This document shows positions 1,233 to 49,200 of a stretch of DNA of 64,000 nt, piece after piece. Source of the stretch: Phoronis australis (taxonomy: Eukaryota; Animalia; Phoronida); NCBI GenBank assembly GCA_002633005.1, contig NMRA01000008.1:750985-814984 (forward strand). The letters run 5' to 3'. A program made the position numbers and the translations under genes. The notes under the pieces are model-generated. The model did no database searches and had not been told where the DNA came from. It worked only from the letters and a program-made list of their open reading frames with translations. Each line of letters opens with the position of its first letter. The stretch's first letter is position 1.

Positions 1233-4200
1233 ATGTCACGCTACTCAAGGCCTCCTAATACTTCTCTTTATGTGCGCAACGTCGCCCCAGGAACTAGGTA
1301 GTTGCTGTTATCTGTGACATAGAATTGATCAGTTCTTGTAAATTACTTACCTAGGACGTTATGATTAAACGTTTTGGTTTATGAAACCGCCCGTGAGTGA
1401 GAGCTAGTTCTCGCCACAGGCGTCCTCAGGCTCAGCTTCTGATCGTCCCCAATACACTATATAATACTACAAGGTATGACACTCCGAGTGTCATACCTTT
1501 AGTATTATATGTAGTGTATTGGGGACGATCAGAAGCTGAGGACGCATGTGGTTCTCACATGAGCCATGACTGACGACGACGTACAAAATTTGAGTTCCCA
1601 TTTCTGAATTGCATGTATAGATATATCCAAATTTTACTCAAAAAGAGTCCGTGGACATGTGGATTTTTCTACCCAGGCAAGCACAATCACTGAATCTTAG
1701 CTACCCTGGTTCTCAAAAGGATTGCCAAATTGTCTTTGCTGTCAGTGACATAAACATTTTGAAACATTTGCCAAAGAGCCCAAACTCCCACAGACAGCTT
1801 AAGGCTAAGTTGCTTTAATGCCACTCTTAGGACAGTCTTGGGTTATTCGAAATTTTACACCACCCCGGTCTATGCTGGTCATTAAACTTATATGGACAAT
1901 TAGAGCTTACTGAGGTGCATGCTAAATCTGGGAGTCAACTGACACTCAACTCCCCCGTTAATCCATTAAAGTGAAAAACATTTTAAAAAATGTCATTTGG
2001 ATGCATGATTCTCCAGCTTTTGAAACAAAGCATGGTTTCTTGTCCACTTTGAGAACGGAATCTTTTTAAGTTCTTGACGTGTGAGACAAACTTCATCTTC
2101 TGTATGTTTGTAAAGTAAAAATAAGACTTAAGTTTAATTTTACTGGCTGAACAATTGAGTGTGGAATAATTGTAATTTCATGGGTGTGACCTTGACGGAC
2201 TTATATGTTTTCCATATCTGACTTACCAAACAATCACTGGGGTCTAAAATTTTGGTCAATAATATTGAGAAACAAATTAATAGAGATTGAAACTATTTTA
2301 ATTTTGATTGAAGCCTTTTGATATAACGAAACTTTTTGCACTTTTGTGGCAGANTGTGACCTGAAATTTCTGGGTGCCGTTTGCTGAAAAAAAGGCCATT
2401 TTTGAGGCTCTAAAATTCAAATAACTCGAGAACCACCGAACCGATTTGAAAAATTCAAAAAGTTTTATAAACGGCATGTCTAAAGCTATCATTTAACACT
2501 CTTTTCAAGTGTTTCTGATGAAATTTGTATTTGGGTTTGCTCACCCTACCAAAGAGCCCAAACTCCCACAGACAGCTTAAGGCTAAGTTGCTTTAACTTT
2601 AATGCCACTCTTAGGACAGTCTTGGGTTATTCGAAATTTTACACCACCCCGGTCTATGCTGGTCATTAAACTTATATGGACAATTAGAGCTTGCTGAGGT
2701 GCATGCTAAATCTGGGAGTCAACTGACACTCAACTCCCCCGTTAATCCATTAAAGTGAAAAACATTTTAAAAAATGTCATTTGGATGCATAATTCTCCAG
2801 CTTTTGAAACAAAGCATGGTTTCTTGTCCACTTTGAGAACGGAATCTTTTTAAGTTCTTGACGTGTGAGACAAACTTCATCTTCTGTACGTTTGTAAAGT
2901 AAAAATAAGACTTAAGTTTAATTTTACTGGCTGAATAATTGAGTATGGAATAATTGTAATTTCATGGGTGTGACCTTGATGGACTTATATGTTTTCCATA
3001 TCTGACTTACCAAACAATCACTGGGGTCTAAAATTTTGGTCAATAATATTGAGAAACAAATTAATAGAGATTGAAACTATTTTAATTTTGATTGAAGCCT
3101 TTTGATATAACGAAACTTTTTGCACTTTTGTGGCAGATATTGTCCTTTGACCCCAAGAGGTCAGTGATGTGCTATGGGTCAAATGATTTTTTTAGAAAGT
3201 TTAGGTTTCGTGTGATTGTACGAATTTGATAATATAGTGAAGTACCCATAAGTAGCTTATTTATGACAAAAGTTAGAAACACATATAAAATTTTTAGGCT
3301 CAAGTGACCTCCAAAAATGGGTTCGGTTATGGAAAAAATTGAAATTCAAATATGGGTGCTGAAACTGGGGAGACAGGGCTTTCAGATGTGACCAGAAATG
3401 TCAATCTAATCACATTTTCTGTCTCTTATATAGGTTGACCTTTTCATGCAATTACCCAAATGTTAATTTGACATGGACTGAAACGGAACAGTAGTGGACG
3501 TGGGGGGGGCTAAATATGGGCATGTGTACAGGATTGAATAGAAACAGTGGCAACTGATGGTAATCCTGATTGACGAATCCATTGATGTCGAGTTATCGAA
3601 CTCCTTTGTTTTGGCATGTGCTACTCGCTAATTTGTGGGTGTGAAAATTAAAAAAAAATGATTTATTTTTCCAGTATGTCTGTTTCTTCAGGGCTTGGAA
3701 TTTTCCGCAGAAACACGGATTTCCGCTTTTTGGAAATGTGCTTTTCGCTTTTTTTATAATATTTCCGCGTAAAAAAAATCGGATTTGATATGAAATTTCC
3801 GCGGCAAATTCCTTTCTTACCGCGGCGTTGCAGACGACGTTCACCTCGGAAAGCGGAAGTTGCTCTTTATGTTTCGGAGGAACGTAAATTGTCAACATTG
3901 CCGGGGCATCTGGGTAAAGCGTGGTGGGATTTTCAATGGCGGCTCGTGTTATTGTTAAGCGCGGCGACAAATACTACCGCTCTGCAGCCAAAATTGTGCG
4001 GGTTGGGAGTGGACGGGCGAGCGAAAAGGACGCAGACGCATGTTACAGATGGTGGTAACGTTTTTTTTTTTTTTTAGTCCTCCCGATTTTTGTCGCGGAA
4101 AGGTTCACATTGACCATTTCAAAGGCTGGTTATCCGGCATGATTTGGGCCGTAAAAGTTTCCGCGTTTTTTGTCATTGGTCATTCCAAGCCCTGGTTTCT

Positions 4201-7200
4201 TACAGATGCAACTAGATTCTTTTGTTGATTTTGAATACATGCTATATTGCTTAACAGTCATTTACATGGGTCCCGCATTTGGAGAACCAGTTTTCTCTAT
4301 TGAATGACTGGCAACAAACTGGTTCTCAGAATCTGGGACCCTGTAAATTACTTTTGCCCTATATTTATGGAATGTCATTGTGTTAACTAGTCTTTAGCTT
4401 GGCTTTGTTAATTGCAGTTCCACTCCGTTTATCTGTGTTCCCATTTTTGGTCTTATTCCAATGCCTGTTTGTGTTTTCTTTGTTTCTCAGACCCGAAGAG
4501 TTGCGCAGTTTATTCGGTAAATATGGTCACCTGTCAGACGTCTATATTCCACAAGACTATTATACAGGCAAGGAACGTGGGTTTGCTTACATACAATATC
4601 CTTCTGTATTTCCTATCAGAGACTGAATTGAATTTCAAAGTTCTGTTTTGTTGTAATTTTAAGAACTCTTTGATTTGTTTTTAGTAGAGAGTATGGAGCC
4701 GAGGTAAAGTTTACAAGCAAGTTCTTAGAGTATACTTGAAAGTGGCTTGGAAGCATTAAACTCGTACAAAAGCAGGCAAGAGTTTGCAAGCCCAAGTGCA
4801 AGATTTCTCATAGGGCGTCGTCTACCAATACAGTACAAGATCATTAAACAAGAAAAGCACGTATTTAAACAAGAAAAGTGTACTTGTGGGAATAACTGCT
4901 TTTGTAAGCTAAATAAATCTCGGCAAGTTAAAGTCACAGTCACAGATGAGAAGTCACCTAGAGCCACTAGTCGTCAAACAAGTTTTTTTCAGTACAAGTT
5001 GCCAGGACTGTCAAGTCAATATTCATTTAAGGGCAGTTTCAAAATCTTTAAATATGAGCCACAGGCTCGTTTCACTGATAAATCTTCAAAAAAAAATTCC
5101 ACTCTCTAGTTCCGGTTTGTCTTCCGAAGCGCCCTGTCAATCAAGGTCAAGTCACTGTAAAGGCACGTTGTCAAGGAAACGGAATGAATGATGCAAGCCA
5201 CAGCGCAGAATAATAAGTCCACTCGCGAGTAGGGTAAAAGTCTTAATTTGGAACGCTCCATCATTTAAATCTTGCAAGCAAGAAACAGTCCAGGCGAGAT
5301 TGGTGTATTGTCAAAAATCGCTAACTTCAAATGTAAGGTGAATTCTTGCGTAGAAAGGCAGGCTTCAGTGAGGTAAATCCTCCAGAGAAAATTTTCATGA
5401 ATTATTCACGCGACTTCTTAAAAATTGCTGGACGTCACTAAAGAGTATCGGACAAGCAAGAAAGAGCTTTACATCGAGGCAAAAAGTAGGCAAAATGGTA
5501 ACAAGATTTCCGTGTCCGAGAACAGTGGCTGGGGTGGGACATGGTGCATCAGACATCTTGGCTACTGATCGAACCAGTTCTATTATATCCTATTGTGTCT
5601 CGACATCTTTTTACAGACAAGTATTAAAATCATTCTTTTGCATTCTTCAAGTGAAATTACTTTAAACGCTTAGATGAAACTCTGAAGTGTAATTTTGTAG
5701 TCGATAATCAACAAGATCTGTTTTTTTTTTAGCTAATGACCTTTGTGCACTGGTCTCCATGTGATTCAAACTTTAAGTGCAACTTGAATTTTGACTATCT
5801 CTAAGTGATGAAATGTCTCAATTGTGTTTGATCAAAGGTTTAGTTGTAGCTGTGCCTTGTGTGTTTGATAACTCCTTAACAGTCAGAACATTTGACCACC
5901 CGCGAGATGCTGAGGATGCCCTGCACTACCTGGACAAGACACTACTTTATGGCAAGGAGCTGGAAATTGAGTTTGCCAGAGGAGACAGGAAAAGTAAGAT
6001 AATACGTTAATCAGTTCTAATCCTACGTTATTGTTTTCAACGTTTGCAATTGCGTATGAGGAATACATCTAGTCACAGAAGGCATCCTTACACCCATGAA
6101 CAGCGTTGTACTGTAGTGGAGTTGGGGAAAGGTTTATTTGGTATTTTGCTGTTATATTTTCACCTACGTTTGCACAGTTTTCTACATGCCATTATTTTCT
6201 TGTTTCGTCTCTTGTGTGCTTCTGATCAATGCAACGATTCAATTGTACTTGTGTTTTGCTTACTGGGATATTCGTTTTTCGACTGGGGGGCATTATGCTT
6301 TCTGTTCTTCGACATTCACTCTTCTTTTGCCCATGATAACCCCTAACTATTTCTCAATAATTAACCTCTAGTTAACTGATTTCTTCGCCAGCACCCCGTC
6401 AGATGGTTTCCAGAGAGCGCAGGAGGTCACCAATTGGTGATCGTTATGATCATCGTCGCAGGCGCCGGTCACGTAGTTACAGCCCAAGGTAATGGCTCAC
6501 GGCGGTCGACAACTGTGTTTATGTGTGTGTTTGTTGATTTCTATAATTGAGAGGTAAGATTTGTCTGCGTTTTACTCTTCTAGCTGCACATCAGATGCGA
6601 AGAAGAGAATCGGGTGGACGCATGGTTGGTCGAGGCAGACGTCCACGGTATGGCACTAGACTGCAAACTCATGTTTAAGTAGCAATGCCATACGCAATAG
6701 TACTGTTGCTCCTTTGTGTTCACGGTAATTTGCTTGGTCAATCACTGTTCCAGGCATAGATTTGACAAAATGAATTCTTGCTTGACGTTTGAAACACGAG
6801 TTTGTAGCTTTAAGCAATAACAGTTGTGTGTAAAACGGGAACTCTGCCATGTGGCACTGAATGTAGGCCTTGGATATGAACACAAAGCAGTCTACTTTTT
6901 AGGTGAATGGGTTTTTGCAGGCGTGGAATGCTGTTCAATAGGTGTGGCACCAATTGTTTATGATTTAGAGCTGCTAGTGTTTAAACATGCCATAAACCGT
7001 GTTTTGGTCGTGGGGTCCGGTCTTGATACTCAAAATTATTTTTAGCATTTTCCGTTCTTCTTTTTTTGTTTAAACGTAAGATAAGTGTGTATTAGTCTGT
7101 GCGCATGTACTTTATGGTTTGCGTATATGAGTTTCTAGTCCAAGTTTGCTCTTGATAATCGTTTGGTTCGAGCTACAAACTCTAGGATAAACACGAGATT

Positions 7201-10200
7201 TTTGCGTAAAAACTTTAAAAATTTGGGGTTCAGACTAAAAACTTCTAGCCTAATGGTGGAGTCATCAAGTTTCCCCTGGTGGCTGTTTTATTGTTTATGA
7301 TTTTGGCAAGTGGGTTCCGATCGAGGAGAGCATTGCTGACTTGCTATACACCACCTCGTGGCTTTTTAAGTTTGCTAGCATTGCTCCCTTTAGTGGGAAG
7401 TTTCGAGTGATCATCCCCTGTATCTGCACTGTATGCAATGCACATGGTGGGCACATATCAATGTTCCGTGTTGCTCTTGTGTTACAAATTGCCAATTCTT
7501 TCCGTTATTTGCCAGACAATCGCTGGAATCATGGCAGGTGACATTACCACCTATACATGCTTAATACAATCCACCTTTTATCGATTGGAGTTGGGCTTGG
7601 TTAGCATTGTATTTTGACTGTGACCGCAAAGGTTGCTACTTTGATTTCAGACTCGGGCTGATTTCAGAAGATTAGTTTTCTCACCAATAATGTCATTTTA
7701 AACACAACACTGTGTGACCGGGGCATGTCTGCTGGTAGTAGGCACTTACAGGGGTCTCGCATTTTGAGTTCAAGCAGTTTCCTACACTGAATAACGGCAC
7801 ATGAAGCTTGTTCTCAAAATTCTAGGCCCCAGCAGGTGACTTGCGAATGATATCTGCTTTCATCAGTGTGTTCTGATTCTTTCAACGCGAACTCATTTCA
7901 GGTATCGGTCCAGATCTAGAAGTCCATACCGCGGCAGGTGAGCATAACATCGCAGGCCAGAATAAAAGCAACTGTTTACCCTTCGGTTTCTGTTTTTTGT
8001 CGTTTTGATGCCTAAATTTTTTTATTTGATAAGGTTCGCCTTATTGCCAAATATTTACATTTTCTGAAAGTAAAAAACTTGTAGAATTTGATTTTTGACT
8101 TTATGCATATCTGTCGTTGATCAGGTCACATGACCATGTCTGTAGTAAAATTCTCGAATCAGTTTTCTGAATCTTTGTGTTATGCATGAAAATGCTGAAA
8201 TTTTTTTTTTAATGGCTCCTCATACAAAAGTGGGACGTTTTATAAACAATTCCAGCTGCGTTTTGGAGAACAGTCCTTAAATTGTAGCATCAGTAAGTTT
8301 CGTATGAATCCGATGAGCAATTTCTGAACTTTCATGTTCGGAAGTTGGCCAAACTTGGACATTTTCCCCTGCCATCTTCAGTTGAATGATTGTCTAGCTT
8401 TTTTGATACCAGTCATGTACTCCTAAGAGGCATGGACTTTTGCAAGTGTTTTTTTACTATAACTTAGAAGTCCTTATAGAGATGGTTTTGAGTAATGCCT
8501 GCCATCCAAGAGCTGGGTGTTTTGTGTCTTCCACTGTCTCCATTCACTAGACATTGGGTTAGGTAGTACTTACGAAGCATCCAAGGAAACACTGATGAAA
8601 AGACAGTTCTATTTCCTTTGTTTTGTATTATTTTGTTGTTCAAATGTGAATTACCCTCAGAGTGGTTTTCCTTACCTTCTGTTGTAGCAGACGACGTTCT
8701 TACAGTCGGTCGAAGAGTCGGTCCCGTTCATATGAACGTAAACGAAGTCCACATGAAAGTAAACGTAGTCCGTCGCCGAGAAGGTAGATTAATTTCTTTT
8801 CGAAGGGCTTTTTGTTCACGTAATCTTGTAAAATGTCACCAATTAATTTCATACCAAAATAATTGCATAAACTGGTCTTTTTTCTCTTTTCAAAGGCCTG
8901 TTTTAAATGCCCATAATATCTCAAAACAAAGCATTTTATCGGTGTTACTTAGTCGAGTAGTTTTCAAAATCAGATGCATTTTGACGGAACCTTACATCTT
9001 GCCAGAATTGTTTGGCACTTTAGTCTAGCATTTGTCGCCATAAAGTTTTTGTTGGTCTTGCGTCAGTTGAGACATTATTGCCTGCAGCTGCTAATTATTT
9101 ATTTACGTAATGTACTTAAGCAGTAAGCCATGATTTCATCAGCAAAAGGTGTCGAAATTAAACCAGAATTTGTTAGAGGCCCATGAGCATTGCTATCCAC
9201 GAAAAGAACCGCATAGACAGGAATTGGGCAAAAAAGTGATTATGATAAAAGCATAGCATTTTACAACGTAACACTACAAAAATGACAAAAAAGCCTAGAA
9301 AATGTGAAACAAGTTTAGCTGTTGGCATTTATGTGTTACCAAAAAATCAGAAATTGCTGCCTTGATGTTTCTTGAACACTTGCTGCATACTAGGAATAGC
9401 TACAAGTTCAAGCCTAAGTATTCACACACAAAAGGATCTGGAATTTCCCGTCATGGCTGCTGGGCAGATGCCAAATTCATCGGCTGAGTAGTCGTCTCTC
9501 ATGACCTAAGAATGAAGGGAAATTAACACGAAAGTTTTTTCTTATTTTTTTTCAATATAATACATACGGTACAGATCACACAATTACACAATGCAATAAA
9601 TTTTTTGTTTGTCAATGATCAGTTAAGGTCAATTTACAGTGCTGATATGTACAAAGGCAATTTAACATTAAAAGTAACTAGAAAGATTATTGTCACGGCG
9701 TGACAATAACGGACTCTGCGCGTGCGTATTACTGGAATTATTATGGGAAGTTACTGACAGCAACCCGTTTACCAATATGAAAAGGAATTCTTTAAAATTG
9801 TAGGAGAAATTACATATTAATTTTTTGATGACCTCTCCACTAATTGACCTCTTCCGGTGCATTATGAGCCCTGATGAGGGAGTAATTGTTAACTCGATTA
9901 AAAGTGTGGTTAATGCTAATAATCTCAGATGTTTTACTTTAAGCACTTCAGAATACAAGATGAATGAAGTGGTCAAACTTTCAGAAGAAAAATGCACCTA
10001 ATGACCCCATAGGTGCACCAAATGACCTGAAAATTTAGAATTCAAACTCAATCGCACTTAGTAAACAGATACGTAATTCTGAAGTCTCTAGCTCAAAATT
10101 TTAGTTTGCACTCAATGACCTTTGACCTATTTTTTCTGATTGGTTAGGCCTATTGCGAAGTAAAGTAGGGTATTCAATTGGCATGTTGACTTACACCAGT

Positions 10201-12470
10201 GTGCTGAAATTGAAAAGAATTCCTTGAAAAACGTAAGAGATATAACATTTTGAACGTTACATGACCTTTGCACTAATTGACCTTATCCGGTGCATTTTAA
10301 GCATCTTTAGGAGAATTATTGCAAAGCCCATGGAAAATGTGTTTAACGCTGAGAATCACAGTTGTCTAACGGTTGACACATCAGAATACTTGCTGATTGA
10401 AAAGGTCAAATTTTCAGAAGAAAAATGCACCTAATGACCCCATGTTTGCACTAAATGACCTGAAACTTTGGATTCCGATTTGATTTACCTGTGGCAATCA
10501 GACCTGTCAATTTGAAGTGTCTAGCTCAAAATTTTAGTTTGCACCTAATGACCTTTGACCTATTTCACCTGATTGGATGACCCGATTACTTAGAAAAGTA
10601 ATTTTTTAAATTGTCATGTTGACTTATACCTGTGCACCGAATTTGAAAAAGATAGCTTTAAAACTGAAGGAGGAGTAGCATTTTGAAAATTATATGACCT
10701 TTGCACCAAACGACCTCTTCCGGTGCAATATGGAATATGATTATATAACCAATCAAAATTTATATACTGTCAAAAGTCATATGCTGAATTTAAAGACCGT
10801 ACCTGCACCCAATTTGGAGTTATTAAGACTCAAAGTTGGTCGGAAGTAGAATAAGAATAAGAAGAATAAGAATAAAATTGAAGAAAACCCAGGAACAACA
10901 GTACTCTGTGCTTACACGCGCAGAGTAAAAAAACAAAAAAGGTCAAGAGCTTGCCAACGCTCTATAACTGAACCATACTTGATTTTGTTTATGTATACAT
11001 ATACTTTTCAGTAGAAATGTACAATGCAACTTTCTTTTTAAAACAGTGCAGGGCAGGGATTTTTACACTTCAGCCTTTGTTTATAAATGTGCTCCTTGCC
11101 AAGGCAAAGAACCATGCTTTGTAAAACTACTTCCACCTGAACACCAAACAGAACTGATTGGAAGGACATTTCTAAACTGTCCAACAGCATCTTCGAGCCA
11201 GTTATTTACATTAGTCCAAAACTGTTGAGCGATGTTACAAGACCAGTACACATGGACAATAGATTCACTTTCATCTATTAAAGCAAAAAGTGCACAATGA
11301 GCTATCAATTATGTCTGCCACCATTCTGTAGTATCCGGGAGATTTAATTTTTCTCTAACATTAACAGGAAAGATAGAATGGTGGCAAGCCATACCGTAAT
11401 TAGTTTTTGCGACCCTAATAGTTATTTCCAGTCAATATGTTTTAACAGGAGACAGTGTGGCTCAATGGTTAAGAGCTCCAGACTCCTGCATGAGAGACCT
11501 GGGTTCAAATCCTGGCTTCACTGGCTGACACTCGAGCATTGCACAATGATGTCCCTATTCCTCTGAACTCGGTCTTACTTGTGAATGTGTGCAAGAGAGT
11601 GAATGAGAACCTGTTCAGGACCATGCTGTATATTAGCCCTTGGCTAAAGCGCGTTTCCTTTATTTAAAAAAAAAAAAAACAGAATTAGCTGTTGTGACGA
11701 GGAAACAGGATCTTGTCTAATTATTGGTGTTTTGTACTGTATTTAGTCTTGGAAATTTATTTCGCGAATTTAAATTTCATCCAGCATTGTAGCTTGACTG
11801 GTTTTTATGCGCCCACATATTTATATGTGGTCGCATATTGCCGTCTTCTTTGTCTGGGCTTCCATCATCCACAGCTGTATCATATAAACCCCTCACGAGA
11901 TCTTGATGACATTTGGCAGATGTGTTCCTATGAAGCTGACGACGAATTTCGGACCGCTACAACTACTGGTGTGCCCCCTAGTTGCAATTTTAGTTTTTTA
12001 TGCTTACCTCTGTATCTTCGTAGGTCCTCGACGGATTTTCATAAAATTTGGCAGTGAGGCATCTTTTAGTGGTATGATTGTATCCTCCTGTTTCCGGATG
12101 GATTCGAGGTACTTTGCACCACCAAGTGGCCATTTTTACTGTTTTTGATTCTGTTTTTTGGCATCCAGCTCTATGGCTATTTTATGTTCAAATAAACACC
12201 CCCTAGAAGCACACCGTTTGCGGTGCATTTGTGGGCACATTTCAACGCTCCGTGTTGCTCCTGTTGTGGCCATTTTGTTTGGAACTGGTTTCACGTGATT
12301 GGACGTCACAGTGAGTGGTTGTAAATATTAGCTTGATGTAAATCATTTATACTGTTTCACCTAGGTCCAGATCATACAGCCACAGTCCCGCCCACGGAAA
12401 CGAAGGAGGTTCCCCTGCCCCCAGGCAGTCACGCAGTCGGTCACACAGCCGTAGCCGTACTCCTACCTAA
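1233..12470 (+). CDS. SRSF10: Serine/arginine-rich splicing factor SRSF10/12-like, paralogue 1 (RRM + RS domain; 202 aa with exon 4a, 191 aa with exon 4b)
   Basis: Exons: 1233-1297, 4491-4595, 5890-5993, 4a 6392-6488 or 4b 6584-6647, 7902-7937, 8688(or 8691)-8783, 12365-12470 (TAA). Translation [34 protein letters not shown]...[22 protein letters not shown]...[11 protein letters not shown], followed by RS/SP repeats. Splice phases are consistent, and the N-terminus and AT-AC intron position match the SRSF10 family. Confidence 0.93.
1414..1551. repeat. Foldback palindrome / hairpin MITE in intron 1
   Basis: Arms of ~60 bp (ctcagcttctgatcgtccccaatacacta...gtatgacactc c gagtgtcatac...tagtgtattggggacgatcagaagctgag) around a 1-nt centre. 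Confidence 0.8.
3689..4194. mobile_element. Non-autonomous DNA transposon (MITE) with CAGGGCTTGGAAT terminal inverted repeats
   Basis: Ends are cagggcttggaat...attccaagccctg, flanked by a GTTTCTT direct repeat on both sides. The interior repeats ttccgc/gcggaa motifs. Confidence 0.8.
4262..4348. mobile_element. Small (~90 bp) palindromic MITE; relatives at ~7747-7835 and ~21071-21170
   Basis: tttacatgggtcccgcatttggagaaccagttt...aaactggttctcagaatctgggaccctgtaaa. A similar ttttgaga...tctcaaaa core recurs at the other two sites. Confidence 0.55.
4596..5889 (+). other. U12-type (minor spliceosome) AT-AC intron, paralogue 1
   Basis: The 5' end is ATATCCTT (4596-4603), the branch point TCCTTAAC is at 5873-5880, and the terminal AC is at 5888-5889. 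Splicing CA|A restores Q-F in RNP1 (RGFAYIQF). Confidence 0.95.
4685..5630 (+). promoter_or_regulatory. Conserved CAAG-rich intronic element with a second U12 5' splice site (5585) and ATTAAA (5623); putative autoregulatory cassette
   Basis: Aligns by eye in several blocks with 17830-18750 of paralogue 2. About 22 CAAG by manual count, ATATCCT at 5585-5591 and ATTAAA at 5623-5628. Confidence 0.7.
9677..10928 (-). mobile_element. Non-autonomous Helitron/Helentron-like element (family A)
   Basis: The minus-strand 3' end has the hairpin TTATTGTCACGCCGTGACAATAA (9687-9709) shortly before CTAGT. It has subterminal inverted repeats actctgcgcgtg / cacgcgcagagt and an internal diverged tandem duplication. 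A second copy is at 31231-31825. Confidence 0.75.
11448..11679 (+). mobile_element. tRNA-derived SINE
   Basis: A box TGGCTCAATGG (11458), B box GGTTCAAATCC (11502) and an A-tail. A related copy is at 28868-29080. Confidence 0.75.
11802..12265 (+). mobile_element. Helentron/HINE-like non-autonomous element (family B)
   Basis: Starts tttttatgcgcccacatatttatatgtgg and ends gtgggcacatttcaacgctccgtgttgctcctgtt (subterminal inverted repeat plus 3' hairpin). The same ends occur at 21363-23331, at 34632-35877 (minus) and as a 3' fragment near 7275-7482. Confidence 0.7.
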
Positions 12471-15400
12471 TGACTGAACAAAAGAGCACATAATTTTGGA
12501 GCAGCACATTCGTGTACTGGATTGTTCTGTGACATTTTAAACCATTTTTAAAGGAACATTTATTTTGTAGTTGCGAAGTTTTTTTACTTTGTGTCATTGT
12601 GTAAGGTGTTGGCTTTCCATGGTTGAGACCTTGGTTTGCAATTGGTAATCCGTCTCGTTTCATTGTCAGTTATTGTAAATGTTATGAATTGTGAGAAAAT
12701 CTGTTGAACATAAGTTAGACTGTCATTGTATTCCCATTGGAATCTTTCAAAGCTGCAGTTAGCTTGTTCAATTTTTATTCGCATAATGTCTTTTGTAAAT
12801 ATGTGTTTAAATAGTAATAATGAACTTGAAATATTATACTGAATGTGTCTGATGTTAATTCATAAGACGGCAGAAATGCATTAAGGTGTTCGCCATGACT
12901 ATTGTTCTGATAAAGCAACCTGTCATGGGATGGTTTGTTTAATGTTAGTACTCATACTGACTATTCCTTGCAAAATGGCAATTTTTAATTGAAATTGTTG
13001 GTGGATACATTTGAAAGGTCAAAATATCTCCATTCATTCCAAAAGGAAATAGTAAGAGATGTTTATGACATACAACAGCCCTGGAAACTGGAAGACAGAT
13101 GTAACCGTCTTATTTCGTGTCTTGACTTGTATCTTTTGAGAAATACAAAACAGTGACTCAACGGTGAGATAGTGTCCCAGTAGACTCAAGGTATATGTAG
13201 TAATATCCTGTGGTTTGCATTCTTAGCTTCACTCAGGGAACTTATCAAGTTTTAACCAATCTCAGCAAACATGTGTTGATATTGTGTGAACAATCGCCAG
13301 GTCTGGGTCAAAGTCAAGAATTTTGAGTTAGAGGGCCCTGGATCGCTTTTTGTGTATGTAAATGAAGTGAACATCCTAAAATCAATTTATAAAATTTAGA
13401 GTCACAATACTGCAGTGAGATGCTGTTAGTAATAATTGTTTATTTTAAGTTACGTTGGTCGCTATTTGGGATGATCAAAAATAGCCAGTTTCAAATCAAG
13501 TTAAAGTAAGAATGAAACAATTAACCCAAAAATAACACTCATGTATTCCAACAACCGTACTGTCACAGAAAACGGGAAGTATTAAATTCCGTCTTATTCC
13601 AGCACTCTATTTTTGTGAGGTAGCACTGTCAGTGAAAGATGTCCCAAGAGTGGTACTCGTCTTGTCCATACAAGCGTAAGTGCATGATCCTATGTGTATG
13701 CGAAAGACCTAAGCAAAGTTTTCTTTAAGAAGTGCATTATTTCCGATACAGGAGCATGTGTAATGGGTATCGATTTTTGCTGGCTAATGTATCTACGTGC
13801 CGCACTGAAGCATCGTAAAAATGATAAGGTTTAAAATTGAAAAGATATAACAATTAGGCTGTATTCGCACTGTTTATAGTAGCTGGCTAGAAACGAAAAC
13901 CGGATTTGTCTTTACTCTCATAAAATATGTTTTAGCTCCTTAGCGTGATGGGATACCAAAACGTTATCAAAACTTTGATGAAGACCCGAGACCGTTCGCA
14001 AAGTTTAGAAAGCGCTTCAGAGCCGATTCCAGCCTTCAAAAATTTGTACATGCATTGTCGGTAACGGAAGGGAGTCCTGTCACCACCAGGAAGAATATGA
14101 GACCAGCTATGACCGTAAAAGAGCCAATTCGATTTTCATTTTTAACCAGATCAAAAACGACAAAATGCGGCCAAGCAGCTTCGTACAGCTGTATCCTCGA
14201 ATTCCATAGTAACATATGACATTACCAAAAACAGATATGATAGGTGAATTCTAATGCATGGCGCATGGCCAAATTCCGATGCACCCGATTTCTCACCGTG
14301 TGACCTATAATTGAAGTCGAGGCGGTGCAGGTGCATGCATGCAAGTGCGCAGTACTTGCATCGATCGATACGTAAGTACCACGGGGTATCCTGCAACCAA
14401 ATTTAGGAGCCTGCCGTCCTAAAGGCATAAAGCACCCCTCTTCCTCAGTGGTTGGTCCGGGGGGTCGGTAAAAATTTACGTTTTGTTCCACGACCGAATT
14501 GCTACACATGAACCCCGTTCATCCCAATCGTCTTACGAGCGTCAGTACTTGGGATCGAAACGCTGGACGTCGAAACTGTCGGAATTTAATCGCAAACCAG
14601 TTTACATATAATTATAAACTACAGTGGTAACTGGCAGGCATTTAATATATAGAGCGAAAGTTTTGTCGTTCCGCAAACTCGGCGCATTCACTGTCAGGGC
14701 CGTAGGAAGCGGGGGGACACGGCGCCACGAGCCCCCCCCAAAAAAAATTTCAGGTGTCGGGGTTAAACCGTGGCAACCGATATAGGCGTGGGCCAGGGAC
14801 AGTCGAGAAAGGAAAGACAGCGAAATACGTCGGATGAGAGAGAAAATTCAAAGAATATTTAACAACTCTACATCAGTGCATGGTTTACCTTTGAGGACCC
14901 TGGCCAGGACATTGTCGTTAGGGTCTCCGCTTTTGCAGCAAACGCGCTTGAAAATGTCGCACAAAAAATCGAGAAATTTTGTAAAGCGGAGCGTACTAAT
15001 TTACTGGATTTTTAAATTCAATAAGTCAATTTTGGGGGGTGCAAAACTATATTTTTCCAGATGCAAGAGATAACGGAGAGAACATTCGCTTTAGTCTCGA
15101 AACTATATCTTGAGAAAAATTGATGACCTGACAGAATCCATGCAATTGCTGCGTATTTCTTGATATTTGAAAATATAGATATTTTCATATTTAGGAGCCC
15201 CCCCCCCTCTTGAGGGAGGCCATAATGGTGACATTCAAGTGGCCACCTTAATTGTGTTCAGCATGGGGCCCGGCTCGAGAAGGCCCAATGTTGAATCGCC
15301 TTTACCCTCTATATATTCTGTTTTTTGTGACATCGTGCAACCGTGCGAATCAGATTTGTAACAAATTTCCTATAGGCCGATATCGATATTCCTATAGGAA

Positions 15401-16042: not shown

Positions 16043-24621
<8,579 letters not shown>

Positions 24622-29900: not shown

Positions 29901-32900
29901 AAGATCTGGGGCCCGTTGTGAGAATTTGACTTAGGTTCTATGTTGACTTAAGCCTAAGATTTGTCTCAGCTTCCAAACTTTGAAGGCTTCCATACCCGGT
30001 AACTAAGTCGAACTTAAGACAAAACTTAAGCCAAACATAATAGCCTTCCTTGGAACGGATTTAAGACTAATTGGAAGTTTCATTTTAAAACTGACTTAAA
30101 TTTACTAAGATTTGTCTTAGCCTGGGAGTTTGATATTGGTCCTAGGTCTTAGCTAAGTCAGTTTTCATGGAACGTGCCCCTGGACTAGTTGTTATCAAAT
30201 AATATTTTGAAAAAACAGGGAGCCTTCACAACAATATTAGGAGCTTTTGAGAATTGAAAAGGGACAATTATGACAATCATTTTTGTCTGAAATCAATGAG
30301 ACTTTAGAATTTTTAAATGCTCATAGCATCCTCTACCTGCTCCACAAGATCAGTTCAATGTTGCAGACATGCAGCAGATTTCGATCCATGAAATAACCTA
30401 CAGAGTTTTCATAAATAGATGAAGCAATTATCACAAGAAGTCAACTTGAATCTTTTATAAACACCCCGTATAACTGGTGGTTGGAGAGATATATCAATTA
30501 CATGCAGGGTCCATCTTTTAACATCCCGTATAGCTGGTGGCTGTAGAGAAAAATCAATTGACCTATCGCAAGCACCGCCCCCTTGCGAAATGTCGACAAA
30601 CAAACGATAAGCTTTACCTGGCAACATGTTGTTTGTCGGGTAAAATGGCGACTTGGAAACGAAGGTGTGTCAAGAATGCTGCGAACTGATTGGTCACTTA
30701 AGCCATCACTCAAAGTCCTGGCGATAGGTCAATTACATGCCACATCCATGTTGTTGAATGTCTTGTAAATTTAATTTAGTTTCCAACAGCAAAGTTATAA
30801 CAAATTACAATTCAGGTCCATCGTTTAGATAAACCCTGAAGATTCAACACAATTTGCGACACCAGAGAATGACAAATCACAATTCAAATGCCTCTTTTGC
30901 AAAAAAGTGGTAGTAATGTTTTAATATATTCCACAATTAATTAAAAAATAAATATGTGCTATCATTACTGTAACTAAAAGTTGATCATTTTCTCTGACCA
31001 AAAGAGCTCATATACATCTGTTTATAAGCTCAGAACTAGTTTAGTTGTTTCATAGCTGCCACAAGAGTAATTCAGACATATGACTAAACAAGGTCCCAAG
31101 TTCTATAGTTAAACAGACACCAGTTCCACCTGGCTGCTGTTGATTCAATCTAATTTGCCATAAGAGATATAGCTATTTTAAGTCTGTCCATTTGAAACAT
31201 TCCACAAGTCCAGGGTACGACAAATTTCAAACTAGAAAGATTATTGTCACGGCGTGACAATAATGGACTCTGCGCGTGCGTATTACTGGAATTATTATGG
31301 GAAGTTACAGACAGCAACCAATATGAAAAGGAATTCTTTAAAATTGTAGGATAAATTACATATTAATTTTTTGATGACCCTTCCACTAATTGACCTCTTC
31401 CGGTGCATTATGAGCCCCGATGAGGAAGTAATTGCTAACTCGATTAAAAGTGTGGTTAATGCTAATAATCACAGATGTTTTACTTTAAGCACTTCAGAAT
31501 ACAAGATGAATGGTCAAACTTTCAGAAGAAAAATGCACCTAATGACCCCATGGGTGCACCAAATGACCTGAAAATTTAGAATTCAAACTCAATCACACTT
31601 TGTAAACAGATACGTAATTCTGAAGTCTCTAGCTCAAATATGGAATATGATTATATAACCAATCAAAATTTATATACTGTCAAAAGTCATATGCTGAATT
31701 TAAAGACCGTACCTGCACCCAATTTGGAGTTATTAAGCCTCAAAGTTGGTCGGAAGAAGAATAAGAAGAATAAAATTGAAGAAACCCAGGAACAACAGTA
31801 CTCTGCGCTTACACGCACAGAGTAATTAGGCCAATCTTTGACACCCGGCAGGTAGAGTTCGCAACACCTAGTGTAAATTCAGCATCGTTCATGATAGCAA
31901 AGTTCAAACCAGTCAGTCATTTTGAAACACCCCGTAGATGCAGCACTTACTTCTCCAGTAGTGTCATCACAGCAGGAGGTATGATGAGTATGGGTGCAGG
32001 CAAGAAGGCCCTCGTTAGAGCCGTCTCTTCCAGTGCCTGACAACAAGAAAAGAAAGTCACCATGAAAAGTTGACTGCGACCGGCATCAGACTGACCAGAT
32101 CAATGCCATCATTACGGTTGATACCGAGCAATGACTACGATTTTTGAAAAAATTGGTGCATTCCACAGCTAAACACAATCAGTTATTTCCTATTCATCAA
32201 ACAACAGTGCATAGATACGTGACATCAAACACTGGTGAGAACTCAAAGTGACTAGCTAGACGGGTAAAACAACATAAATACAATTGATGGAACAGAAACA
32301 TTCGACACACAACTCTTACTACCATAGTGGGAGCCCGAAGGTGACTTCTGGTCCATTCAGAATCATCAATGCTATAATGGTAAAAATTGTAAGGAAACCA
32401 ACAAAAATAATGGTAAATTGTTAGGAAATTGGCCAAAGACATTTTGATGGTTTTATATACGGAAAATGCTCACCATTGTTTGGAGGGCTACAGTATGGTC
32501 AAGTCAATCATCACTGTTTGGAGGGCTACAGCATGGTCAAGTCAATCTTCACTGTTTGGAGGGCTACAGCAGATGGTCAAGTCAATCATCACTGTTTGGA
32601 GGGCTACAGCATGGTCAAGTCAATCATCACAGTTTGGAGGGCTACAGCAGATGGTCAAGTCAGTCATCACTGTTTGGAGGACTACAGCATCGTCAAGTCA
32701 ATCATCACTGTTTGGAGGGCTACAGCAGATGGTCAAGTCAGTCATCACTGTTTGGAGGGCTACAGCATCGTCAAGTCAGTCATCACTGTTTGGAGGACTA
32801 CAGCAGATGGTCAAGTCAATCATCACTCCCATGTGCCAGGAGAATACCATGAAAATTCTCAAGTTTCGTAAAATAAAAAATTGATTATTTTGCTCTACGT

Positions 32901-35900
32901 CAGAGGTTGTATCAAATTTCAGAAATAGGCCAAGGCCAAATTCAAGAATTACAAGAAAAAATTACCTGGGCCCGGAATCTAATCTTTGTACTCGAAACGA
33001 ACTCGAAATTATTTTTGGCAATTTCTCTGCTACTTCTGTGCCCGAATACATCACAGTTTACACATATGAGTTTCTAATCCAACTTTGCTCTTGCTGACCC
33101 TTATATTTGTGCTACAAACTTGTCAAGTAAAAATTTGAANTTTCAGGTCGCAAATGCGACCTGCAGCTCGTTATGTCGAGCCCTGGATTATTTTGCTCTA
33201 CGTCAGAGGTTGTATCAAATTTCAGAAATAGGCCAAGGCCAAATTCAAGAATTACAAGAAAAAATTACCTGGGCCCGGAATCTAATCTTTGTACTCGAAA
33301 CGAACTCGAAATTATTTTTGGCAATTTCTCTGCTACTTCTGTGCCCGAATACATCACAGTTTACACATATGAGTTTCTAATCCAACTTTGCTCTTGCTGA
33401 CCCTTATATTTGTGCTACAAACTTGTCAAGTAAAAATTTGAAATTTCAAGTTCAAACTGGACTTTTTAGCCTTAATGTTGGGTTTATCAACAGTACTGCA
33501 AACTAGGACTAAAAAACTATCCATGTAAATCATTAAGTACTCAAGCTTAGAATAACAGACGCTTATCTTGAGTTTTTAGTTAGAGCCCAGGCCCTGGTCA
33601 TGATTTTGAATTCCATTGTCGGTGGCTATTCTGAACAATTACACGAATTACTGGGTCTGTTTTCCGACTCAGTTGACACAAGACAGTGTCCCATATTTGA
33701 GAAAAATCACCTCTGGCAGTCATCAGAATCAAGAAAACTCAATGTCAGTGTCCCAAATTTTAGAGACAGCCTAATCTGGAGAATTCTTACGGTACCGTAA
33801 ATGTGAGACTAGTATAATTGAATGATAACATACCTTCCTCGCAGCAATTTTGGAAGTGCCGACAACATTTCCGTCCTGATCCTCCACGTCTATGCCCTCC
33901 GACAGCTCGTTATTCCTCATCAACACGACATTACACACGCTGGCGCAAGCTGAAAGGCCAAAGGTCATGGAGACACAATATTACTAGTACTTAGGATACC
34001 TTTCATGACGTTTCTAGACTTGAAGACTACCTTCGAAAAAAATTTAGCATCGAGAAGCAAGAATATACATTTTGTAGTAATATTCTTAGTGAGCTTAGCA
34101 TTTTCAATATAAGATTTCGTCCACTTGGGTCTCTAAAACACAAAAACTTATCTTCAAGGAAGACAAAAATAACAGGATAAAAACTAGGTTCGAACTTCAA
34201 AGTTTTCAGCTCATCAACAAAAATTGAAGAACTATCAGGTTCATCAAGAGAACTGAAATAAAATTGTGAGAGATTGCGAAAGAATACAGTTTAAGTTTTA
34301 TATCTCAAACATGACTTAGTGACCTTCATTCCAACTCACATATCAAAAAACAGACAACGTGAACTAGTAAAGGTACATTATTTTCTGAAAGAAAAAAGAT
34401 CAGAGATTACAAAAATATGTTTTATATTTATGTGCCATTATCATTATTGCATTAACACCTTTTTAAGTCAAAATTTTCATTTTTAAGAAAGGTACAGTCA
34501 CAGCAAAATAACACCTCGGTCGATTTTAATGAAACCATTTTTTCAAAACTGACGCCCAGATATAATGCTTTCTAGTGCTTTCTGGACTCATCTCTTGTTA
34601 TTCTATATTGCGTTTTTTGTAATAAAATCCTAAACAAGAGCAACGCAGAGCGTTGAAATGCGCCCACAATTGCACCGTATATGGTATCCTTCTAGGGTTG
34701 TTTATTGGTACCATAAAGTAGCCAGTTGTACTTTGCAAAATGGAAAGGCATGGTCATTGTCTCCTCAATAGGCTAGGGGCAAAATGTGAGTGATCTTCAT
34801 AATACAAGCACATCCTATACATCAGTTGCTTAAAGNNNNNNNNNNNNNNNNNNNNNNNNNNNNNNNNNNNNNNNNNNNNNNNNNNNNNNNNNNNNNNNNN
34901 NNNNNNNNNNNNNNNNNNNNNNNNNNNNNNNNNNNNNNNNNNNNNNNNNNNNNNNNNNNNNNNNNNNNNNNNNNNNNNNNNNNNNNNNNNNNNNNNNNNN
35001 NNNNNNNNNNNNNNNNNNNNNNNNNNNNNNNNNNNNNNNNNNNNNNNNNNNNNNNNNNNNNNNNNNNNNNNNNNNNNNNNNNNNNNNNNNNNNNNNNNNN
35101 NNNNNNNNNNNNNNNNNNNNNNNNNNNNNNNNNNNNNNNNNNNNNNNNNNNNNNNNNNNNNNNNNNNNNNNNNNNNNNNNNNNNNNNNNNNNNNNNNNNN
35201 NNNNNNNNNNNNNNNNNNNNNNNNNNNNNNNNNNNNNNNNNNNNNNNNNNNNNNNNNNNNNNNNNNNNNNNNNNNNNNNNNNNNNNNNNNNNNNNNNNNN
35301 NNNNNNNNNNNNNNNNNNNNNNNNNNNNNNNNNNNNNNNNNNNNNNNNNNNNNNNNNNNNNNNNNNNNNNNNNNNNNNNNNNNNNNNNNNNNNNNNNNNN
35401 NNNNNNNNNNCTCTTTATAGTAAGCACATACATGCCAATTTTCACAATCATCCTTTGAGCGCTTTGGTTGATAGAGGGGTGGACGCAAAAATACAGACTC
35501 GAAAACAGTAAAAATGGCCACTAGGTGGCGCAAACTATGTCGAATCCATCTGAAAACGGGAGGACAGCGTCATCTCACTAATAGGTGCCTACATACCAAA
35601 TTTCATAAAAATCCGTTCAGGACTTTTCAAGATACAAAGGTAAGCGTAAAAAACTAAAATTGCCACTAGGGGGCACACCAGTAGTCGGATTCGTCTGAAA
35701 GTTCGCACATGCCGTCCCATTCATGAATGGAACATATGTGCCAAATTTCATGAACGTATGTCAAAGGGTTTTGGAGATAGAGCAGTGGACGCCGGACGTT
35801 GGACGGACGCCGCCCCTACGGACGGACGGAGATGACGGTATAATGAGTCCACATATAAATATGTGGGCGCATAAAAATGAAAACTTAACAGTTTGAGTGA

Positions 35901-46209: not shown

Positions 46210-49200
46210 ATGGTCTTGGATACTCACAATATGGCCTCTCTAGTCAGTTTCACGCTTTTCTTCTGTCTTAACATCCCAGGATTGGCGTCATCTTTCTCAG
46301 CGTAAGTGATTTTTTTTTTGTTTAAAATCTGTCAGTTTTTCAAGGCAGTGGATTTACCCTTCTCTTTGGCCGGCATGCGTATTTGTCAGTCAAAATGACG
46401 AGAGGGGTCTCGTAGGCTGATAGATTGTTTATTTTTCTTAAGTATTGCGCACTCCTCCATTTCTGGAGTACTCACAATGCAAATTATTCAACGACATTTT
46501 TGTGTCTGAATTAACTGGTATTTGACGGTAAACGTGGACCAAATGATCATGATATCACGGTGTTTTGAGAGTTTTATGTTACCGCAGATGGAACCGGAGT
46601 GTGGCTGAATACGCCGTGGTTGACCAACTGTTTGCAACTTACGACAAACGAATTCGACCTCAACCGGTTAACGGTAAGTTGAATAAACCCGTGCTTTTTG
46701 TCAAAAACAATTTTATTAACCTGGTCTGAAGAAATAAGGATATGGATCACCTCTAAATTGAACAAGTTTCTAAAGTTAGTGGCCTAAATGAAAACTTGTT
46801 GCATTAGGGTTGAATGAATGCCACTTTAGAAGTGTTACTTCTGTATACCGANATTGGCGTCATCTTTCTCAGCGTAAGTGATTTTTTTCTTGTTTAAAAT
46901 CTGTCAGTTTTTCAAGGCAGTGGATTTACCCTTCTCTTTGGCCGGCATGCGTATTTGTCAGTCAAAATGACGAGAGGGTCTCGTAGGCTGATAGATTGTT
47001 TATTTTTCTTAAGTATTGCGCACTCCTCCATTCCTGGAGTACTCACAGTGCAAATTATTCAACGACATTTTTGTGTCTGAATTAACTGGTATTTGACGGT
47101 AAACGTGGACCAAATGATCATGATATCACGGTGTTTTGAGAGTTTTATGTTACCGCAGATGGAACCGGAGTGTGGCTGAATACGCCGTTGTTGACCAACT
47201 GTTTGCAACTTACGACAAACGAATTCGACCTCAACCGGTTAACGGTAAGTTGAATAAACCCGTGCTTTTTGTCAAAAACAATTTTATTAACCTGGTCTGA
47301 AGAAATAAGGATATGGATCACCTCTAAATTGAACAAGTTTCTAAAGTTAGTGGCCTAAATGAAAACTTGTTGCATTAGGGTTGAATGAATGCCACTTTAG
47401 AAGTGTTACTTCTGTATACCGAGCATGGTTAGGGCTGGTGTGTCTACCTCATGAGATGCAACCGAAGGAGGCGCTTTTGAGTAACTTCTGTGCGTGAAGT
47501 AATTTTTAAACACTGTTTCCGGGGTCAAGTTCTTTTATATAAACATTTATGAAAGTTTCAATACTATTACACAAAGACAAATTATCCAAGACCTCAATCA
47601 ATGCATTTGGGTATAAAAAGAAATAATTAAGGGAGAATAAACATGTACCGGTACAATGGAACAAACAATCACATAGAAACTTAGCGAGGCTATAACAACG
47701 ATACTGTTATATAATAAAAAATTTAGTTTGTTATTATAAATAAATGTATTGTAATATCGTAATAATAATGTACAATATCGATTAGAAAAATGTTCAATTC
47801 GACTTTGAGTTGATGGGAGCCGGAAAGTTGAAATAAGTCACATTGATAATTGAGTGAATAAATAAATAATGGTCACAATAAATACAGGTCCGTAGCAGCA
47901 TTGCGCAGGGGGTGGTTCGAATTTCTCATGGTGGACCTTTGATACTTTGCAAACGTCGACACTGAGTTTTCATTAAGGCCCTCAGTTGACGCAGCTTAAT
48001 CAGGGGGAAGGAAATTTGTATACACAACGATGACTCTCAGTTCTATGTTTTTGAGATGAGACGGAATTAGTAATACCAGAGATGAGGATGCCGTGACGGC
48101 TCGCCGGTTCCCGGCGTGCCGCTAGGTGGTAGCCAGCACGCAGGTAGCAGGCAGTAGCACGCACTTTATCACTGGTTGATGTAATCTCGACAGTCATTGG
48201 TTAGCTTTACAACAAATTGAGAAAATGTCGGACTATGGACGATTTTTAGCCTTGTCCATGCAAGTGGCATGGCAGCAACTGTTTTGTTTCAGCAGTGGGC
48301 CTAATAGCCGCGTGCTCAGAAGCACATATATATATACAAGTACAATAAACAGGCAGTCATCTGGTCGATTTAATTAGTGTGCTATTCATTCTGTATAAAT
48401 ACAGGACAGTAGGCCTAATGAAAACAAAAGCCTGCGACATTAGGAACATGTAATCCGAAAGGCGCAACCACAATTTTCTGGGATTCATATTTCTTGAACA
48501 TGAATTTTAAGCACCCGATTTGTCTGTACAACAGACTACATCTACACTTCCTCCAACAGTCATGTCAATTTGTTTGGGTAAAGTGCTGCTTGCTGGGAAA
48601 TCGACCAGCCAATCAGAAACGCCGGTGTAAAAAAATCCCCGAGGAAAATTAAATGATCATACCAGGCTTGCTGGCTACCACCCAGCGTCACGCAGGGAAC
48701 AGTGACGGTTGCTCGCAAAACAATGGGACTCTCATTTCGGATGTAATGTAGTCCAAAACTTTTTCCTCGTTACTTCTTGCCAAATTTTCAAATCAGGCAT
48801 GCTTAAATGAGTGATTACACCTTCTCGGTCAGAAATATTTAGTCGGAGATTAACTTAACGAAACTTTTTATCTAGTTATATTTTTCGTGTTAACGGTATT
48901 GCGTTTTAAACAATTTGGAGTGAGAATAACCCCTCGAACCCCCATGGCTACCGGCCTGATAATATTGTGTTATTAATTTTGACTAGTAGAGTTCTAAGGT
49001 GAATGCGTTGAGTTTTTGTGATTTTATTCGCGCCGTTGTTCGCCAGATTCACTGCGTGTTTATTTCGGGATTTGGCTCAGCAGTAGACCGTTCGGCTGCT
49101 AGTAACTTCGATTTCGCGCTAGTGCTGGTTTCAATAAAATTTCTTTTCTCACCGATAATCTCCATTTAAATAGGGCATTCCAAAAACAAAATGATTTAGT

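Follow-up and report, generated by a model that had tools for sequence, protein, structure and literature searches.

A tandem pair of post-RRM exons used one at a time in an SRSF10-like gene of Phoronis australis

In Phoronis australis, a gene for an SRSF10/12-like SR protein carries two alternative exons directly after the exon that ends its RRM, exon 4a (positions 6392..6488) and exon 4b (6584..6647), and RNA reads confirm that these behave as a mutually exclusive pair at the available depth. Our preferred reading, which we consider probable, is that 4a and 4b are diverged copies of the post-RRM exon that are used singly, that joint inclusion is likely limited by a short intron together with NMD, and that the choice between the two likely sets the phosphorylatable serines next to the RRM. 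All features described here lie on the forward strand, and positions are counted within the window, the whole 64,000-nt stretch of contig NMRA01000008.1 (assembly GCA_002633005.1, 750,985 to 814,984) that was analysed.

The window holds only two SRSF10-like gene copies. Gene 1 (1233..12472), recognized from sequence and RNA junctions, has coding exons at 1233-1297, 4491-4595, 5890-5993, either 4a or 4b, 7902-7937, 8688-8783, and 12365 to the stop; its junctions between 4491 and 8783 are backed by RNA reads, and exon 1 and the last exon by loose read ends only. Gene 2 (16043..24621; 207 aa), recognized from RNA junctions and the tree, is its tandem paralogue. The two are sisters in a tree of 32 rows (support 98/88) whose bootstrap is not fully settled and which includes no outgroup SR family. 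Both encode a single N-terminal RRM most like that of SRSF10/12, followed by an RS domain. RRM identity to the top 25 matches is 73-79% over 91-92 aa, and proteins named SRSF10/12-like lead that set; a protein search for a close relative found none among 23 candidates, the best reaching 78% over exon 3. A U12-type AT-AC intron after exon 2 is spliced in both genes, at the position described in mouse. In gene 1 it leads to exon 3 (5890..5993), the common upstream exon that ends the RRM, with 4595^5890 seen in 5, 12, and 22 reads of runs X1, X2, and X3. RNA reads also mark exon 5 (7902..7937), the common downstream exon. In exon 6 of gene 2 (23439-23508) a perfect 21-nt repeat of 3.3 copies lengthens the RS domain. 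Elsewhere in the window, near-identical (98-99.6%) adjacent duplicates occur at 1771-3137, 21931-22911, 32883-33448, 46281-47422, and 48480-50137, with a single N at or near each join; these are likely unmerged scaffold overlaps, that is, assembly artefacts.

Exon 4a is of the ancestral type, and its 97 nt specify 33 aa with five RS/SR and two SP dipeptides. Exon 4b is the derived copy; its 64 nt specify 22 aa with four glycines, one serine, and no RS/SR or SP. As the first-pass annotation had described them, both run from phase 1 to phase 2 and lie 95 nt apart, their coordinates and translations proving correct. They are bounded by AG and GT. The intron between them (6489..6583) is 70% identical to the 83-nt paralogous intron of gene 2. 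Inclusion of one exon leaves the frame open, giving 202 aa with 4a and 191 aa with 4b. Inclusion of both shifts the frame, as had been foreseen, and a stop then arises 114 nt ahead of the last junction; skipping of both also causes a frameshift, and the stop then falls in the last exon. The available text of PMC5740500 recognizes mutually exclusive exons as neighbouring internal exons in the same frame, without an in-frame stop, whose lengths differ by a multiple of three and by no more than 60 nt. The 4a/4b pair agrees with these criteria for tandem-duplicated mutually exclusive exons in frame, length, and homology, the exons being neighbours in the same frame with no in-frame stop and a length difference of 33 nt.

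The RNA data comprise three raw-read runs (X1, X2, and X3) and one contig set (X4), all under the same species label. About 18-19% of each raw run was read, junctions of gene 1 were scored on 4450-8850, a match of at least 95% was required on both sides of a joint, and a junction was listed from three reads in a run upwards. All four junctions predicted in the first-pass annotation were found: 5993^6392 in 7 reads, 5993^6584 in 27, 6488^7902 in 7, and 6647^7902 in 18; one X4 contig has the 4b form. By run (X1/X2/X3), exon 3 is joined to 4a in 4/2/1 reads and to 4b in 3/2/22, and exon 5 is joined to 4a in 0/1/6 reads, a joint flagged 'between: not known', and to 4b in 4/4/10. Each exon joins both flanks and bypasses the other, which bears out their mutually exclusive use. 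The joint 6488^6584, expected to be rare, is listed in none of the four runs, at a low depth where up to two reads per raw run could be hidden. A double skip is likewise listed in none of the four, at the same low depth and the threshold of three reads per run.

Reads into 4a (7) equal the reads out of it to exon 5 (7), and these 14 start at 9 places. They make up 24% (95% CI 14-37%) of the 59 exon-4 junction reads of gene 1, and about 5% when both genes are combined, 4b taking about 95%. The share of 4a is 36, 33, and 18% in X1, X2, and X3; with both junctions counted, the runs do not differ significantly (p 0.20). Taken alone, the upstream junction does differ between runs (p 0.002), and in X3 the 4a:4b ratios upstream (1:22) and downstream (6:10) disagree (p 0.013). 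Since the overall difference is not significant and the X3 junctions conflict, the counts do not establish regulation.

In gene 2, exon 4b (20329..20395; 67 nt) is the only exon 4 for which use was seen; the first-pass annotation had noted neither this loss of 4a in the paralogue nor the dominance of 4b. It is entered by 95 reads (41/27/27 in X1/X2/X3) and left for exon 5 by 110 (40/38/32). Before it lies a decayed remnant of 4a (20198..20245), in which 34 of 48 nt are identical to gene 1 and the 5' half of the exon is not alignable; the RNA runs list no joint into this 4a-like sequence. All six CpGs of the arginine codons of gene-1 4a have become TG or CA in the remnant, where eight codon changes are non-synonymous and three synonymous. 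In the exons used by both genes, CpG is kept at 22 of 39 sites (Fisher p 0.02 against the remnant, and p 1e-4 for TG/CA changes). A change of CpG to TG or CA is the pattern expected from methyl-CpG decay of an unconstrained copy. Seen against this decay, the intact 4a of gene 1 looks constrained and would be held by selection. Differences outside CpG in the remnant (8/36) are of the same order as those at four-fold sites (12/36), so that the date at which gene 2 lost 4a cannot be set. Inclusion of the remnant would give an immediate stop, and a poison exon was considered here and rejected, as no junction is listed. X2 does cover 20054-20224, over the remnant, at a depth of 3.4, though no joint is listed there; 20234 is a loose end of an X4 contig.

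The first-pass annotation attributed the pair to tandem exon duplication, an origin supported by the shared exon start in a profile search and by the same order of elements in gene 2. The profile was made from the first 10 residues after the RRM in 55 distinct homologue 10-mers, and every AG site of the window, 7,111 in all, was given a score. The highest three scores belong to gene-2 4b (23.5 bits), 4a (21.5), and 4b (16.7), the next site reaching 3.9; the shared start [TS]-x-x-Q-M, to which attention had been drawn earlier as T-x-x-Q-M, is far above chance. From these ranks it appears that 4a and 4b both descend from a single conserved post-RRM exon of SRSF10/12. At the DNA level they resemble each other over roughly the first 14 nt only (about 10 residues are homologous), and in direct comparison 4a is not significantly similar to gene-1 4b (p 0.67), with p 0.02 against gene-2 4b. 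The order in gene 2 matches that in gene 1, namely the 3' half of 4a, a short intron (70% identical), and then 4b; in the flanking introns no alignable conserved block was found between the two genes. Because the order recurs and the genes are sisters, the exon duplication would be older than the gene duplication.

As to which copy has changed, 4a lies near the median of 169 distinct orthologous 22-mers, of which only four are like 4b in having at least four glycines and no RS/SR. The typical form of 4a and the rarity of 4b-like segments indicate that the ancestral type is represented by 4a, and that 4b is derived and now dominant; and because orthologues are arginine-rich in this segment, gene 1 would hold the ancestral state. 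The history may thus have begun with tandem duplication of the post-RRM exon, after which the 4b copy would have lost its RS/SP dipeptides and turned glycine-rich. The whole gene would then have been duplicated, and gene 2 would have fixed 4b as its 4a decayed, with both retained in gene 1.

The pair was not seen in other animals in 28 same-locus isoform sets (10 fish and 18 invertebrate), within each of which the 20 residues after the RRM are identical; the sets were grouped by hand from 120 listed matches of 280 and of 430, plus cluster members. Among the best 22 of 43 metagenome loci, nine have exactly one exon-4 copy (with 0.4-3.2 kb of downstream sequence covered), four are spliced transcripts, and nine gave no match; several of the nine single-copy genomic loci are close relatives of each other. 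The suggestion that vertebrate SRSF10 lacks the arrangement agrees with the human isoforms in the available part of PMC8522700 and with the 10 fish isoform sets. Three apparent parallels were rejected: in Pecten the two proteins are on different chromosomes, in Pinctada the protein repeats exon 3 plus exon 4, and in Haliotis the pair are separate genes. A literature search of the accessible texts gave no report of such an exon pair in SRSF10, and genome-wide supplementary tables could hold one; PMC10639083 names SRSF10 only in its references. Two further features of these loci may be recorded. Same-length annotated isoforms of Branchiostoma floridae (P0049/P0151) and Haliotis rubra (P0051/P0139) have all their differences within exon 2, a hint that exon 2 may be duplicated in other SRSF10 genes, or else that their annotations contain chimeras. 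A CTTAAC-type branch sequence precedes exon 3 at loci L001, L002, L005, L006, and L009-L018, with an AC end in nearly all, so that the AT-AC intron appears common to these animal loci; L020-L022 are without it.

How the two exons exclude each other can be considered in terms of the intron between them and of the fate of the products. Joint inclusion would likely be limited by the short 95-nt intron, and NMD would likely remove what is made. By the 50-nt rule, a stop more than 50 nt upstream of the last junction makes a transcript subject to NMD. Double inclusion, with its stop 114 nt before the last junction, falls under this rule, which is also cited in PMC7244321. NMD does not account for the absence of the double skip, whose stop is in the last exon. 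Branch-point candidates common to both genes are predicted at 6537 and 6546, 49 and 58 nt from the 4a donor; in gene 2 the shared candidates are at 41 and 50 nt, and other predicted candidates are at 11, 33, 62, 69, and 86 nt. The steric criterion in the available text of PMC5740500 is a distance from donor to branch point below 50 nt, by which steric hindrance would be a borderline block on joint inclusion. Docking and selector pairing of the Dscam type found no counterpart, there being no inverted repeat that shares one site between both exons, and the local RNA structure of 6340-6700 gives no signal (fold z 0.12).

The first-pass annotation also pointed to a donor-like GAG|GTA upstream of 4b in both genes. 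The motif does occur at 6554 and 20303, with seven of nine positions fitting the donor consensus in gene 1 and only five of nine in gene 2. No listed junction uses either position, and AGGTAAG is not rare in the window (8 observed, 6.5 expected). The gene-1 site (6551..6559, with GT at 6554) is thus a possible decoy, unseen in use. Two roles for 6554 were rejected, as no such junction is listed: that of a donor by which 4a would be lengthened, and that of an acceptor for a longer 4b. Read by hand, use as an acceptor would give an extended, in-frame 4b of 94 nt (6554-6647) in gene 1 only and not in gene 2. The site is stronger in gene 1, where 4b is alternative, than in gene 2, where 4b is the sole form seen, and this one comparison may fit a decoy role: with a strong donor-like site 30 nt ahead of it, the 4b acceptor of gene 1 may be weakened, leaving room for 4a.

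At the protein level, the switch had been described as one between a phosphorylatable RS-rich and a methylatable R/G-rich segment. The first half of this description stands, in that a serine-rich and a serine-poor segment alternate after the RRM, but the methylatable RG/GR reading of 4b is weak. The RGG/RG methylation motif consists of repeated, conserved RGG or RG. Neither 4b has such a motif, gene 1 having no RGG and one RG, and gene 2 having neither, so arginine methylation of the 4b segment would be a weak candidate for the effect of the swap. With RG absent from gene-2 4b, the property conserved between the paralogues is to be glycine-rich and serine-poor. The change from 4a to 4b removes only five of 30 RS/SR dipeptides and four of 29 serines of the tail, 25 of each being common to both isoforms. 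In an AlphaFold2 model of a chiton homologue, residues 93-101 form a helix (pLDDT about 69), and confidence is low beyond it; Met96 is invariant in 64 sequences. For the start kept by both exons, a short helix following the RRM is accordingly predicted, the swapped part being a predicted disordered stretch behind it. SRSF10 is described in the available text of PMC7244321 as a splicing activator when phosphorylated and a repressor when dephosphorylated. Given this dependence, changed phosphorylation is the likeliest effect of the swap, possibly a small one, the choice of exon likely setting the number of phosphorylatable serines beside the RRM.

Both genes also contain a stop-containing alternative exon in the AT-AC intron. 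In gene 1 it spans 4690..5584 (895 nt), its start being taken from one contig's loose end, and it ends in a U12-type donor, with 5584^5890 in four X1 reads. In gene 2 it spans 17835..18728 (894 nt) and is joined from exon 1 in 67 reads, as many as join exon 1 to exon 2, and to exon 3 in 30. The intron between exon 1 and these exons is of the GT-AG type, and the one that leads on to exon 3 is AT-AC. Because exon 2 ends in a U12 donor and the stop-containing exon starts with a U2 acceptor, the two likely cannot be joined, and they are likely a second exclusive choice in both genes. CAAG occurs 25-32 times per kb in 4690-5584 and 17835-18728 as against 4.6 in the window, and conserved blocks are common to both exons; these are possibly autoregulatory binding sites.

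The reading that competes most with ours, rather unlikely in our estimate, is that the pair is real but functionally near neutral, 4b having taken over and 4a being a leaky ancestral exon on its way out. Gene 2 has already lost 4a and does without the swap, linkers vary widely among orthologues, and most of the RS domain lies downstream and is common to both isoforms. The run-to-run 4a share does not differ significantly (p 0.20), and over both genes 4a has only about 5% of the exon-4 junction reads. However, 4a has about a quarter of those of gene 1 and is present in all three runs; its frame and its two splice sites are intact, and it has lost none of the six CpG arginine codons, all of which decayed in gene 2 during the same period. 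This retention of arginine codons points to constraint on the protein, and it therefore also speaks against the quite improbable view that 4a is mainly a poison cassette whose joint inclusion with 4b triggers decay and tunes the output of gene 1. The stop formed by double inclusion does fit the NMD rule, and NMD would hide such transcripts; poison exons are, moreover, common in SR genes according to the available text of PMC7244321. Yet the reads from 4a to exon 5 balance those into 4a, no 4a-4b joint is listed, and both genes already have a separate, heavily used stop-containing exon.

It is very improbable that the source of the 4a reads is a nearly identical copy of the gene, or a haplotype, elsewhere in the genome, so that 4a and 4b would not be alternatives in one transcription unit. 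The copy count covers the 64-kb window, a third copy elsewhere being possible, and assembly duplication artefacts do occur elsewhere in the window, but the window has two copies only, gene 2 shows the same tandem arrangement, the stretch from 2355 to 22423 is free of N, and the reads matched at least 95% on both sides of the joint. More can also be made of the pair than in our preferred reading of singly used, diverged copies. A speculative extension, on balance doubtful, is that a serine-poor, glycine-rich linker is the lineage default for SRSF10 and that the ancestral RS segment is kept only as a regulated minority exon in one paralogue. The swap would then turn a kinase-controlled activator/repressor switch on or off, and output would also be gated by the second exclusive choice through U2/U12 incompatibility.

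The 4a/4b pair is a new case of a known class of mechanism, of which U2AF1 is the closest example to compare. There too a splicing-factor gene has a tandem duplicated pair, exons Ab and 3 (U2AF35a/b), of 3n+1 length (67 nt in U2AF1), and inclusion or exclusion of both gives NMD targets, as far as the available text of PMC5224494 describes them. In gene 1, by contrast, the 50-nt rule does not make the double skip subject to NMD. The U2AF1 copies are distinguished by seven residues, which lie in a folded domain, and both have been retained throughout the vertebrates (PMC5224494, same text), unlike 4a and 4b, which share only about 10 residues, differ by 11 aa, affect a predicted disordered segment, and are found in one lineage only. 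Homologous mutually exclusive clusters in general are likewise formed by neighbouring, same-frame, homologous internal exons (PMC5740500, PMC4165533, in the parts available). Lengths not divisible by three are the commonest class there (377 of 629 human clusters; PMC5740500, PMC4165533), and 14 of 19 such clusters in worm rely partly on NMD (PMC4165533). In the present pair, unlike general clusters, only the 5' ends are homologous, and one of the two paralogues has reduced the pair to a single exon through loss of the other.

Human and mouse SRSF10 resemble the two genes in having one RRM and an RS domain, an AT-AC intron after exon 2, and inside it a poison exon with a minor-type donor. What distinguishes the mammalian isoforms is the 3' end, a NAGNAG site, or the poison exon, and the available portions of PMC8522700 and PMC7244321, on which these statements rest, describe no alternative post-RRM exon. 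In mammals, splicing into the poison exon starts from a second donor within exon 2, and the minor donor of the poison exon sees little use (PMC7244321, same portions); the stop-containing exon of genes 1 and 2 is instead spliced to exon 1, and its AT donor does serve in splicing. SRSF1 (SF2/ASF) also has an arginine-containing linker adjoining an RRM, where methylation can affect localization, but that linker is constitutive in the text available (PMC3195771), and RG is not conserved between genes 1 and 2.

Mechanisms of this class are common, and the protein may be little affected. The value of the case lies in a natural pair of isoforms that are identical except for the segment adjoining the RRM, which would offer a direct test of what that segment contributes. 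At the same locus a duplicated exon has met two different fates, retention as an alternative in gene 1 and decay in gene 2.
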